Part shown: positions 1-3,732 of the stretch, piece by piece
Numbering within the stretch: position 1 is the first letter of the stretch
How the letters are laid out: each line of letters begins with the position of its first letter
Origin: a virus
Length of the DNA: 41,757 nucleotides
Strand: one strand, 5' to 3'
Virus record (IMG/VR): IMGVR_UViG_3300029570_000020
Location: 1 to 41,757 of that record
The notes under the pieces: model-generated
The model's input: the letters and a program-made list of their open reading frames with translations, nothing else
What the model was told of the DNA's origin: nothing
Databases searched by the model: none
Translations under genes and position numbers: made by a program

Positions 1-170
1 CGCCGGAAACGCCAGCCGTAGCCGCGCCGTACTTGCCGGCCGTAGCCGCGCCGGCATCGCCGGCCGTAGCCGCGCCGTACTTGCCGGCCGTAGCCGCGCC
101 GGCATCGCCGGCCGTAGCCGCGCCGGAAACGCCAGCCGTAGCCGCGCCGTAATCGCCAGCCGTAGCCTGT
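1..170. repeat. 24-bp tandem repeat array (about 7 units in this copy) encoding GAATAG[D/K/V][A/Y/S]
   Basis: Repeated gccg[g/c]...gtagccgcgcc units with a 24-nt period are read directly. The array continues at 41700-41757. Confidence 0.9.
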
Positions 171-2366: not shown

Positions 2367-2404
2367 TTTTTCACCTCCCTAGTAAAAATTAGAAGTAAAC
2401 AAAA

Positions 2405-2433
2405 TTGACTGCCGCGACACAATACGCTATAAT
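2405..2433 (+). promoter_or_regulatory. Consensus sigma-70-type promoter P1 (TTGACT-17-TATAAT)
   Basis: TTGACT at 2405-2410, 17-nt spacer, TATAAT at 2428-2433, read directly. Confidence 0.7.
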
Positions 2434-2439
2434 CTGAAT

Positions 2440-2734
2440 TGCCAGAGTAAGGCAGAAAGGAAGGTGGTCGTCCCTTGACCCAACTTTTGAGTATGCCAGT
2501 TCCAGACTAAAGAAATTGCGTAACGCGCTATGGCTTAAACGGCTGCCCCAAAGCTGCCAAAGGTTACGGCAAGTCCACAGAATTGCAAGTTCGTTTTGCA
2601 AGCAGCGGATGCGCATTGCACAAAGGACCGTGTACTTGCCCGCTCACATTGAGCGGTTCCGTTGCTGCAAACTTGTTCTGGTAAAAAACTTTGGGAAAAA
2701 TCCGTCTGCTAACGAACAGCAGGCGGATTTTTTT
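2440..2734 (+). ncRNA. Candidate ~295-nt non-coding RNA in the immunity region
   Basis: Bounded by P1 and an intrinsic terminator. No SD-preceded ORF. Internal hairpins, e.g. CCGCTCA-cat-TGAGCGG around 2640-2657. Confidence 0.5.
2696..2734. terminator. Bidirectional rho-independent terminator
   Basis: Stem 2701-2710 (TCCGTCTGCT) pairs with 2718-2727 (AGCAGGCGGA). A5 lies upstream and T7 downstream. Confidence 0.7.
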
Positions 2735-2756
2735 GCTGTCGCGGCAGTGTAAGGTG

Positions 2757-2785
2757 TTGCAAATGTTTACAAAACGTGCTATATT
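2757..2785 (+). promoter_or_regulatory. Promoter P2 for the CI-like gene (TTGCAA-17-TATATT)
   Basis: Hexamers and 17-nt spacing read directly. The spacer contains TGTTTAC. Confidence 0.55.
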
Positions 2786-2873
2786 GTAGTTGTCAGATAC
2801 GTAATAGCATTTAGTTCAGGCATATAGCTGTCTGGGCTTGGTGTTTTGTTGCGTTTGTTGCCTTACAAGTGCC

Positions 2874-2902
2874 ATTATAACGTAAACATACGCAACAGTC
2901 AA
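2874..2902 (-). promoter_or_regulatory. Consensus leftward promoter P3 (TTGACT-17-TATAAT on the minus strand)
   Basis: The reverse complement of 2897-2902 is TTGACT and that of 2874-2879 is TATAAT, with a 17-nt spacer containing TGTTTAC. It faces P2. Confidence 0.65.
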
Positions 2903-2963
2903 GCGATTTTGTTGCTTTTGTTTACGTTTGTATGATTGCACAAATAATTAGGTGAAAAATTGT

Positions 2964-3314
2964 ATGTTCTATGACAACTTTATTAGATTGTGCGCAAAAG
3001 AAAACATATCCCCCAGTGCGGCAGCAGAAGAGATGGGATTTTACAGGTCTGTTGTTACTCGCTGGGGCAAGGGAGGGAACGTTCGTAAAGCAACGCTTGA
3101 AAGGGTAGCAAACTATTTTGGCGTTACCGTAGACGACCTCATAGGAGACGATTCCGCGCAAAAAGAAAAGCCCACCGCGCAAGGCGATGGGCTAAAACTA
3201 GATTCCTATGAAGACATCGATCAGTGGCTTGACACTTTAGATGGCAAAGGTCTTGATATGGTAATTGCGATGGCAGCAGCAAAGAAGGTGAAAGTCAATG
3301 AAGATAAATCCTGA
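2964..3314 (+). CDS. CI-like XRE-family repressor
   Basis: ISPSAAAEEMGFYRSVVTRWGKGGNVRKATLERVANYFGVTVDDL is a classic XRE HTH. SD AGGTG lies 8-9 nt upstream of ATG 2964; the track starts at the in-frame GTG 2952. Confidence 0.8.
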   Translation: MFYDNFIRLCAKENISPSAAAEEMGFYRSVVTRWGKGGNVRKATLERVANYFGVTVDDLIGDDSAQKEKPTAQGDGLKLDSYEDIDQWLDTLDGKGLDMVIAMAAAKKVKVNEDKS

Positions 3315-3732
3315 TTGCGTCCGAGATGTTATGCTCGGTCTTGAAGAACAGCTCGGTTTGTTCCTGAATGATAAATGCAGTATGGAGTTTGAATGTTCCA
3401 GCCCTGATAAGCTGAAAAAATCCTCTTTTATGAGGGGCAAAGGCTATTCCCGGGAAGATATATTTTATTCTTGCTTGCAGGCTGCTGAAAATGGCTATAT
3501 CGTGGCAGAATATCGAATAGACAAAGAACTCAGAACGATAGAGTTTTTTTATATTATGTATATCACGCCAAAAGGCCATGACTTTATTGCGTCAATTTCC
3601 AATCAGCAGACGTGGCAGAAAAAAATAAAGCCCACCTTGTCAGCGGTTGGCAATGTGTCTCTTACTGTGATTGAAACGATTGCAAAAGGTGCGGTAACTG
3701 CGCTTATTGAGCATCATCAATCCGGCTCTTAA
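3298..3732 (+). CDS. DUF2513-like winged-helix protein co-transcribed with the repressor
   Basis: Overlaps the CI-like 3' end by 17 nt. MKINPDCVRDVMLGLEEQ... and ITPKGHDFIASISNQQTWQKKIK fit the DUF2513 pattern recalled from memory. Confidence 0.55.
   Translation: MKINPDCVRDVMLGLEEQLGLFLNDKCSMEFECSSPDKLKKSSFMRGKGYSREDIFYSCLQAAENGYIVAEYRIDKELRTIEFFYIMYITPKGHDFIASISNQQTWQKKIKPTLSAVGNVSLTVIETIAKGAVTALIEHHQSGS

Follow-up and report, generated by a model that had tools for sequence, protein, structure and literature searches.

How does a predicted phage immunity region with three consensus-like promoters, two of them facing each other and the third lying before a structured RNA, choose between lysis and lysogeny, and what is an RNA gene doing there? 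We address this question for positions 2367-2963 of the virus record IMGVR_UViG_3300029570_000020 of IMG/VR, of which the whole stretch analysed, 41,757 nucleotides (nt), is called the window below. The segment separates a leftward gene for a Cro-like protein from a rightward gene for a CI-like repressor and appears, from its gene content and conserved signals, to serve a temperate phage of gut Clostridia as its lysis/lysogeny switch. Its setting is that of a prophage-type immunity region, because small helix-turn-helix (HTH) genes lie leftward, genes for an XRE-type HTH protein and a DUF2513 protein lie rightward and an integrase gene follows further right on the same strand as the DUF2513 gene. 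An initial annotation, made from the letters alone, had joined the three promoters (P1, P2 and P3) into a single switch through a shared TGTTTAC operator half-site. Here we argue that P2 and P3 form the switch proper and that P1 belongs to an optional cassette carrying FuFi-1 (Rfam RF02986), an orphan RNA motif, antisense to the lytic leader.

Three sets of loci underlie the comparisons. Homologues of the 64-amino-acid (aa) Cro-like protein on 80 viral contigs, in the same position as in the window, make up the cro-family set, and all of these loci were turned to the window orientation before P2, P3 and the repeats were compared. FuFi-1 loci came from a scan of a genome collection, which gave 11 confirmed loci in metagenome-assembled genomes (MAGs; Lachnospiraceae, Oscillospiraceae, Eubacterium, Acutalibacteraceae and others), and from scans of viral contigs, which gave 10 close relatives and 100 further stretches. 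The 5' parts of the FuFi-1 transcripts were compared as 61 distinct sequences from the 11 MAG contigs and more than 100 viral contigs. Viral contigs are often closely related to each other, and locus counts therefore overstate the number of independent events. Promoters were called on the assumption of an E. coli-like sigma-A consensus.

The promoter pair P2 and P3 and its operators

The promoter scan recovered all three promoters with the hexamers and 17-nt spacers, and at the coordinates, that the initial annotation had given them (Table 1). The predicted starts of P2 (near 2792) and P3 (near 2867) also agree with it; they lie ~75 nt apart, and the two promoters fire toward each other. Across about nine cI-like alleles of the cro-family set the hexamers and the 17-nt spacing of both promoters are kept while their surroundings diverge. 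P3 reads TTGAC(T/G/C) or TTTACA, 17 nt, TATAAT/TATTAT/TATACT and keeps its place in all immunity types, 55-60 nt before the cI-like start. P2 reads TTGCAA/TTGAAA, 17 nt, TG-n-TATATT/TACTAT/TATTAT, including in the Flavonifractor phage Chenonceau, the sole named relative here, which the window's 2-kb switch matches only at the cro-like gene. In five relatives (L173, L155, L177, L208 and L193) a plus-strand gene of 100-120 aa begins ~35 nt after the P2 -10 hexamer and is preceded by no other promoter, so that P2 would drive the mRNA toward the cI-like gene in these phages. The same five loci lack FuFi-1; the product of their P2-P3 cargo gene has a hydrophobic C-terminal stretch, and a small membrane-like open reading frame (ORF) follows P3 on the minus strand.

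On this comparative evidence P2 and P3 are a conserved, predicted face-to-face pair that resembles the switches of coliphages P2 and 186 in its logic and not by homology. The initial annotation had pointed to the same coliphages, and the part of that likeness that stands is the convergent layout and its logic; homology does not, and the first early protein is not of the Cox/Apl type. The AlphaFold model of the 64-aa Cro-like protein has four helices (predicted local distance difference test, pLDDT, 85) arranged as a 434-Cro/XRE-like domain, and its top Foldseek matches are lambda-repressor-like proteins, SinR and the 434 Cro and repressor proteins, with E-values that are all non-significant. 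Pfam returned no match for this protein, and a sequence search of the PDB with both regulators gave nothing informative. The first early protein is thus predicted, from its model, to have a 434-Cro/XRE-type fold and not a Cox/Apl-type one, and for this reason we consider that the switch works in the P2 manner without being a member of the P2 family. We are confident in this architecture as described.

Two negative results bear on how the pair would work. No back-to-back PRM-type promoter is conserved across the immunity types: of the candidates, a 9/12 match at 2921-2948 and an 8/12 match found by eye (TTGTTG-16-TATGAT, 2909-2936), neither is kept. Nor was a promoter for the cro-like gene found near its ATG at 2366, either by the scan (no match of at least 9/12 on the minus strand in 2367-2873) or by eye. 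As no other minus-strand promoter lies between, transcripts from P3 must cross ~500 nt, including the whole antisense cassette described below, to reach the cro-like gene. Their leader encloses P2, whose own transcription would run rightward over P3 and on into the cI-like gene. The placement of that ATG and of a terminator between P3 and the cro-like gene (2696-2735) had been noted correctly by the initial annotation.

Three copies of a 15-base-pair (bp) unit, GTTGC-N4-GTTNNC, surround P3 (O-left, O-mid and O-right in Table 1) at positions that are fixed in all immunity types, and their sequence follows the recognition helix of the CI-like protein. The window (type A, helix MGFYRSVVTRW), type E (L155, L185 and L191; MGF(Q/K)RSV(V/I)TRW) and type H (L179; MGFQRSVVTRW) all carry the repeat GTTGC-(G/T)TTT-GT.... 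In types B, C, D and G the three positions are taken by other repeats: GC(A/G)AACTTTTTAAAC with the helix LGISKGTVASW in type B, AGTAACTTTAGTAAC with MGISKTTVNRW in type C, ACGCTAAC-N5-NAAC with MGIAKATVSRW in type D and TCTAACTTTTCTAAC with IGLSNAAASGW in type G. This covariation is the best evidence at hand that the three P3 repeats are operators of the CI-like protein, as we predict. The earlier identification of the region as a phage immunity switch is supported.

The covariation also changes what the operator is taken to be. TGTTTAC does occur four times, on the plus strand at 2764-2770 and 2919-2925 and on the minus strand at 2882-2888 and 2395-2401, with copies inside the spacers of P2 and P3 and one 3 nt from the P1 -35 hexamer, just as the initial annotation had read them. 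As the shared half-site that it was proposed to be, the heptamer does not hold up, since the conserved unit is GTTGC-N4-GTTNNC, of which the GTTGC half is the better conserved; TGTTTAC represents the other half, and does so in two of the three operators. The unit GTTGCNNNNGTTNNC has five matches in the window against 0.64 expected, a number reached in 0 of 100 shuffles, and four of the five lie at 2756-2925. The window-wide count of TGTTTAC (9 in 41.7 kb against 4.8 expected, with 9 reached in 7 of 100 shuffles) is by itself unremarkable and not significant, and four of the nine copies fall within 531 bp, where, by our own arithmetic from the window-wide count, ~0.1 would be expected.

The idea of one operator common to all promoters fails on the P2 site, because the P3 copies co-vary with the recognition helix of the CI-like protein and the P2 copy does not. 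Whatever the immunity type, the P2 site reads GTTGCAAA(A/T)GTT(T/A)AC, and it moves together with the cro-like gene. This constancy leaves two explanations, promoter sequence and nothing more or a site for the conserved Cro-like protein, and we treat the site as a candidate Cro-like operator, plain promoter sequence or both. The Cro-like and CI-like proteins probably do not share operators.

The FuFi-1 cassette

P1 heads a different unit. In ~30 non-redundant FuFi-1 loci a conserved 5' hairpin is preceded, at a constant distance, by a sigma-70-like promoter, and in the alignment the distance from this promoter to the Rfam core is ~85 nt in short forms, among them the window, and ~230-250 nt in long forms. 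Because the promoter and the 5' elements are conserved together upstream of the Rfam core, we take P1, with high confidence, to be the promoter of a transcript that joins a short ORF to FuFi-1 and ends at the intrinsic terminator. Folded whole, this predicted transcript has a minimum free energy (MFE) of -108 kcal/mol (z = -3.8). The window's FuFi-1 lacks the ~150-nt middle domain of the long forms and has a ~40-nt insertion in one hairpin. The earlier view of P1 as a third switch promoter is hard to maintain, since the promoter would drive the FuFi-1 cassette, and near-identical phages have an otherwise complete switch without this cassette. Nor does the TGTTTAC copy beside P1 behave as an operator: 2395-2401 is only a partial match to the unit, the surrounding GTAAACAAAATTGAC, in an A-rich stretch that precedes P1, matches the P2 site in part and in inverted orientation, and the copy is not kept in the L158-type cassette, which reads GTTAATAAATTGAC in its place. 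The initial annotation had overlooked that the terminator ends an RNA gene, as well as the repeat at 2848-2862 and a perfect 12-nt inverted repeat that brackets the RNA gene and whose two arms are the only copies of this sequence in the window.

A pseudoknot is possible between the loop of the second FuFi-1 hairpin (2547-2553) and a segment just before the terminator (2689-2695): the pairs are CCCAAAG/CTTTGGG in the window, CCAAA/TTTGG in the consensus and GCCGA/TCGGT in the L158 type, and the loops CCATAA and CCAAGA do not covary. Two further pairings were set aside. The first, between a conserved GGGTAAACAAATTTGG segment and transcripts containing TGTTTAC, was dropped because the window's FuFi-1 has no GTAAACA; in the second, the complement of the short-ORF Shine-Dalgarno (SD) sequence pairs with the cro SD in the MFE structure of the leader, with z = 0.24 and a differing centroid, and we make no claim of it.

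The 5' part of the transcript is as much a family feature as the Rfam core. Common to the 61 distinct 5' modules are the promoter, a TGCC-loop-GGCA hairpin, an SD-like GAAAGGAG and a short reading frame, whose start codon lies 7-10 nt past GAAAGGAG in the alignment and which follows the pattern M-[T/S/K]-[K/Q/E/A]-[L/F/I]-L-x-[L/M/Q]-P-[A/V]-P. An SD-like 4-mer stands 4-13 nt before the start codon in every module (61/61). The start codon is TTG in 29, ATG in 23, GTG in 7 and CTG in 2; codon 8 encodes proline in all 61, by way of CCT, CCA or CCC, and codon 10 does so in 57. We lean toward the short ORF being translated. In short forms of the L030 type (L030, L033 and L051), an abundant group, the frame extends to 36 codons and reaches into the first FuFi-1 stem (MTQLLNLPVPFALNPSVLIPRQSKQVKDGSDCFVSD); public protein sets list this 36-codon ORF, from more than 100 contigs, under no other name than "hypothetical protein [Caudoviricetes sp.]".

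In the cro-family set, the 5' module is present at 37 of the 80 loci, ~85-135 nt upstream of the cro-like gene and on the opposite strand, always in the same place and orientation. An obligate link between the 64-aa protein and FuFi-1 was accordingly rejected, as 43 of the 80 homologous loci lack the module, and an inverton was rejected as well, since despite the 12-nt inverted repeat all 37 loci have the same orientation. By Rfam search, FuFi-1 is present in L136, L137, L156, L158, L170 and L199 and was not found in L144, L150, L153 and L164. The closest comparison is with L144 and L150, whose Cro-like proteins are 100% and 94% identical to the window's and which lack the whole unit: there the cro ribosome-binding site (RBS) is followed by ~13 nt and then by GTTGCAAAAGTTTACAAAGTATGCTATATTG, which is P2. 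Positions ~2380-2750 of the window (~370 bp, comprising P1, the short ORF, FuFi-1 and the terminator) are therefore best described as inserted DNA that separates the cro RBS from P2.

Flanking repeats of unrelated sequence occur at the same two places in other FuFi-1 types, inverted in L016, the L029/L030 type, L035 and L103 and direct (21-26 nt) in L061 and L092. Of 26 non-redundant loci, 10 have a cassette-flanking repeat; of 52 control windows, 2 have one. These repeats may be sites for a shared regulator, a clamp on the leftward transcript or a recombination scar.

FuFi-1 keeps this kind of position among phages whose regulators are unrelated. Its neighbours in distant loci include HTH_3/Phage_CI_repr proteins, ImmA-type Peptidase_M78 proteins, repressors of the LexA-type Peptidase_S24 kind and HTH_17 proteins, and wherever a homologue of the window's integrase was found it lies downstream on the same strand (12/12). 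In L016, L061 and L030, which have unrelated cro/cI families, a strong early promoter lies beyond the cassette as seen from the first early gene (TTGACA-17-TATTAT, 11/12, in L016; TTGACT-17-TATAGT, 10/12, in L061; TTGACA-17-TATTAT, 11/12, in L030), and in L025, L022, L017, L028 and L024 the cassette comes after the first small HTH gene. The common theme, as far as these arrangements indicate, would be a unit on the lysogenic strand lying antisense within the first few hundred nt of the early lytic operon. A blastn comparison of long-form and short-form cassettes with 50,697 phage records gave no match.

What the cassette may do

As a whole statement, we give the following explanation about even chances. 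In the lysogen, the CI-like protein would occupy the three operators and turn P3 off, and P2 would maintain cI expression; after induction, the Cro-like protein would bind the P2 site and turn P2 off. P1 would yield the RNA of short ORF and FuFi-1 from the lysogenic strand, probably in abundance. A transcript started at P3 would then meet P1 transcription head-on, the terminator in reverse and a fully complementary FuFi-1 RNA, and because of these three obstacles the cassette should damp or delay expression of cro and the early genes and so stabilise lysogeny. That damping of the lytic leader in cis is the role for which the cassette was selected is a more tentative proposition, to which we would give somewhat less than even chances; the folded RNA or the micropeptide is likely to act in trans as well.

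A number of points weigh against this explanation. All of the promoters are predictions made as consensus matches, and the P2 site fits the type-A operator consensus, such that the CI-like protein may bind there too in this phage. Read on the minus strand, the terminator has a weaker stem because a G-U pair of the plus strand becomes a C-A mismatch; this reverse terminator, with its internal mismatch, folds at -18.5 kcal/mol and is followed by five U (a terminator-like match lies at 2722-2706 on the minus strand), and transcripts from P3 would somehow have to get past it. Perhaps the phage tolerates no other orientation than antisense, as in the sense orientation the terminator would block early transcription and the promoter would drive cro constitutively. 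The complex and sequence-conserved fold of FuFi-1 has been read as the sign of a sophisticated biochemical role (Weinberg et al., PMC5737381), and a simple antisense RNA needs no fold of such complexity.

The short ORF and the cassette's slot add to these difficulties. In the short ORF there is no excess of third-position variation (mean column entropies of 0.42, 0.50 and 0.46 bits at codon positions 1, 2 and 3), the nucleotides are kept in L028 while the reading frame is shifted, and the stop falls anywhere from 10 to 40 codons, all of which argues against a simple coding constraint; the start is CTG at two loci. The FuFi-1 slot of Chenonceau, a cultured phage with the same P2/P3 core (L011, ON453904, 4194-4490), holds another autonomous unit, made of a promoter (TTGACT-17-TATACT), an SD, a 39-aa ORF (MKNNFRTSAEIASLAGRLMHHWCKEIRSLAAIALANRRK) and a terminator. 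Since the cassette is dispensable, the Chenonceau slot is filled differently and other cargo lies between P2 and P3, the switch looks like a hot spot for cargo.

The rival that survives best takes up this last point. If the cassette were pure cargo (a moron), its RNA or micropeptide would act in trans on a host or phage target, in defence, counter-defence or physiology, and its position would carry no regulatory meaning. Several properties fit: the cassette is optional, alternative cargo sits in the Chenonceau slot, relatives carry other cargo between P2 and P3, a near-consensus promoter and a strong terminator belong to the unit itself, and both its complex fold and its short ORF are conserved. 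We nevertheless think it rather unlikely, because the ~30 non-redundant loci lie among small switch HTH genes and not at other usual moron sites, and at least four unrelated phage groups carry the unit in the 5' part of the early operon. Moreover, P1 of several types shares repeats of 10-27 nt with the region after the terminator, where the switch promoters are, and, on general grounds of transcriptional interference and antisense RNA, the lytic transcript cannot go unaffected by a strong convergent promoter and an RNA fully complementary to it.

A second rival makes the terminator conditional. P1 would then establish lysogeny in the manner of lambda PRE, with the short ORF and the FuFi-1 fold as a sensing leader, riboswitch-like or an attenuator, that decides whether transcription stops at 2735. 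In favour of this rival are the terminator with which the motif always closes and a conservation like that of riboswitches (PMC5737381), the leader ORF and its SD ahead of the motif and, at most loci, a cI-like gene on the same strand 150-650 nt downstream, either directly or past one small convergent cro-like gene. Against these stand the cI-like gene's own conserved promoter P2 (a back-to-back promoter in L030), the variable stop of the short ORF, the loci L028 and L059, which have only minus-strand genes downstream, the fact that no conserved antiterminator pairing was found and the judgement of Weinberg et al. (PMC5737381) that a riboswitch role is improbable. We consider this reading improbable, and the same holds for its wider form, in which FuFi-1 cassettes are portable phage decision modules whose leader peptide and ligand- or factor-sensing fold set their own termination. 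If it were true, stopped transcripts would be abundant antisense RNAs against the lytic leader, and read-through transcripts would be PRE-like, antisense to cro and sense to cI; a physiological signal would be coupled to the choice between lysis and lysogeny through an RNA, and an orphan class would gain a function.

Still less probable, to our mind, is the model of the initial annotation, in which all three promoters, P1 included, are regulated as one switch through the TGTTTAC half-site. The four copies do cluster at the three promoters, and the one adjacent to P1 is in part an inverted match to the P2 site. The model has to contend, however, with a P1 that would drive an RNA missing from otherwise identical switches, a conserved unit of which one copy lacks TGTTTAC, a P2 copy that does not co-vary with the repressor, a P1 copy lost in the L158 type and a window-wide count without significance. 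Lastly, that the promoters and operators are non-functional chance matches to consensus in AT-rich intergenic DNA is very improbable: the scan does return ~4 matches per 3 kb of shuffled sequence (8 promoter-like matches in the scanned region against 4.1 +/- 2.1 in shuffles), but two of the promoters score 11/12, and the comparative data disfavour chance, as the positions, hexamers and spacers of P1, P2 and P3 are kept amid diverging flanks and the operator repeats co-vary with the repressor allele.

Surroundings, related systems and significance

Coordinates of the features discussed here, and of the flanking genes, are collected in Table 1. Left of 2172 the relatives of the window diverge. 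The leftward early operon contains, at ~1360-1870, ~500 bp without a convincing ORF and rich in CCGTTGC, GCCTTGC and GCTTTGC, which could be iterons, an origin or another RNA; Rfam gave no match there. Seven tandem copies of a 24-nt unit lie at the left end of the window (1-167). Far to the right, a D12-methyl RNA (Rfam RF02950, 88 bits; 32960-33023, minus strand) lies directly upstream of a 294-aa ORF (32021-32905, minus strand) with a DPPY motif and an internal LQR/LQS repeat, and ORFs resembling the small and large terminase subunits follow.

Table 1. Predicted features of the switch region and its flanking genes, in window positions.
Feature	Position	Strand	Description
Second small HTH gene, 98 aa	1879..2175	-	Pfam HTH_26; early operon; mosaic, differs among close relatives
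cro-like gene, 64 aa	2172..2366	-	ORF; first gene of leftward early operon; weak PHROG match 'transcriptional repressor'
P1-adjacent site GTAAACAAAATTGAC	2395..2409	+	Holds the minus-strand TGTTTAC at 2395-2401; overlaps P1 -35
P1, probable promoter of the transcript with short ORF and FuFi-1	2405..2433	+	TTGACT-17-TATAAT; 11/12
12-nt inverted repeat, left arm ACTGCCGCGACA	2408..2419		Inside P1 (-35 and spacer)
Predicted P1 transcript, ~295 nt	2440..2735	+	5' hairpin, SD, short ORF, FuFi-1 domain, terminator
5' terminal hairpin TGCC-loop-GGCA	2440..2454	+	Conserved at transcript start across the family
Shine-Dalgarno-like AAAGGAAGGTGG	2456..2467	+	Upstream of short ORF
Short ORF, MTQLLSMPVPD (11 codons)	2475..2510	+	TTG start, TAA stop; translation of the window
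FuFi-1 core (Rfam RF02986)	2518..2732	+	117.3 bits against a gathering score of 59.6; E = 5e-25; full model 1-175
Intrinsic terminator	2696..2735	+	17-pair stem, -22.9 kcal/mol, then seven U
12-nt inverted repeat, right arm TGTCGCGGCAGT	2737..2748		Directly after terminator, 9 nt upstream of P2 -35
P2 site GTTGCAAATGTTTAC	2756..2770	+	Over P2 -35 and spacer; second TGTTTAC copy of the initial annotation; constant across immunity types
P2, predicted lysogenic promoter toward cI-like gene	2757..2785	+	TTGCAA-17-TATATT, TG-n extension; 9/12
5' stem-loop of P2 transcript	2799..2854	+	Strand-specific: -24 kcal/mol, z = -5.1 (+); -6.3 kcal/mol, z = 0.3 (-)
O-left GTTGCGTTTGTTGCC	2848..2862	+	~+5 to +19 of P3; without TGTTTAC
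P3, predicted early lytic promoter	2902..2874	-	TTGACT-17-TATAAT; 11/12
O-mid GTTGCGTATGTTTAC	2882..2896	-	Inside P3 spacer; third TGTTTAC copy of the initial annotation
O-right GTTGCTTTTGTTTAC	2911..2925	+	8 nt upstream of P3 -35; fourth TGTTTAC copy of the initial annotation
Conserved word TTGCACAAA	2936..2944	+	Directly upstream of cI-like SD; kept in all immunity types though flanks differ
cI-like repressor gene, 116 aa, XRE-type HTH	2964..3314	+	Pfam HTH_26, HTH_3; PHROG transcriptional regulator/repressor families
DUF2513 gene	3298..3732	+	Lysogenic strand; overlaps end of cI-like gene

Among characterised switches, those of the P2-like coliphages come closest. There the repressor acts at operators placed over the lytic promoter, and a separate set of sites, over or near the lysogenic promoter, belongs to the first early protein (PMC7498355). 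The window shares with 186 (pR/pL) and P2 (Pe/Pc) the convergent promoters with overlapping transcripts, predicted here, the placing of the predicted repressor operators at the lytic promoter and operator half-sites that are direct repeats about one helical turn apart; next to the first early gene, over its lysogenic promoter, it also has a candidate for a distinct site. It differs in that no homology to P2 or 186 proteins is seen, the first early protein being of the predicted 434-Cro/XRE type, in that the host would be a Gram-positive gut anaerobe and in the RNA cassette within the lytic leader. The spacing of the predicted starts is wider as well, at ~75 nt here and far more in cargo-carrying relatives against 40-60 nt in the coliphages.

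Lambda offers partial parallels. Like lambda OR, the window has three repressor sites around the lytic promoter; unlike OR, it has no conserved back-to-back PRM, and Cro and CI probably share no operators. As with lambda PRE, a lysogenic-strand promoter would yield a transcript antisense to the cro message; P2 is near a good consensus and, on its sequence, would need no CII-type activator. Closer to the cassette itself are lambda OOP and P22 sar, small units with their own promoter and terminator that are convergent with, and complementary to, the early lytic transcript, all of which is found here; FuFi-1 departs from them in being ~300-400 nt long, highly structured, sequence-conserved across unrelated phages, portable and equipped with a short ORF. 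From a riboswitch or attenuator leader it is set apart by the separate promoter of the cI-like gene, P2, and because no conserved antiterminator pairing was found.

In the indexed literature FuFi-1 is an orphan motif with no assigned function or context and a suspected sophisticated biochemical role (Weinberg et al., 2017, PMC5737381), for which no self-cleavage was found and a riboswitch role was thought improbable (PMC5737381). The window's copy agrees with the published motif in its full-length model match, its multi-stem junction followed by an intrinsic terminator and its Firmicutes-type genomes. It is unlike that description in forming the 3' domain of a predicted transcript that is longer and has a conserved promoter, 5' hairpin, SD and short ORF ahead of the Rfam core, and in being an optional cassette, found mostly in phages and prophages, that lies within the switch on the strand opposite the early operon. 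The context, the 5' module with its short ORF, the optional and portable nature and the antisense placement in lytic leaders are new for FuFi-1, in that we did not find them in the indexed literature, and judging by the genomes in which it occurs FuFi-1 is mainly a phage RNA.

These comparisons document a convergent-promoter switch logic in phages of gut Clostridia. The pairs of operator and recognition helix from about nine immunity types are useful for predicting the immunity groups of uncultured phages, and with natural phages at hand that are near-identical except for the cassette, the orphan FuFi-1 motif becomes a testable question.

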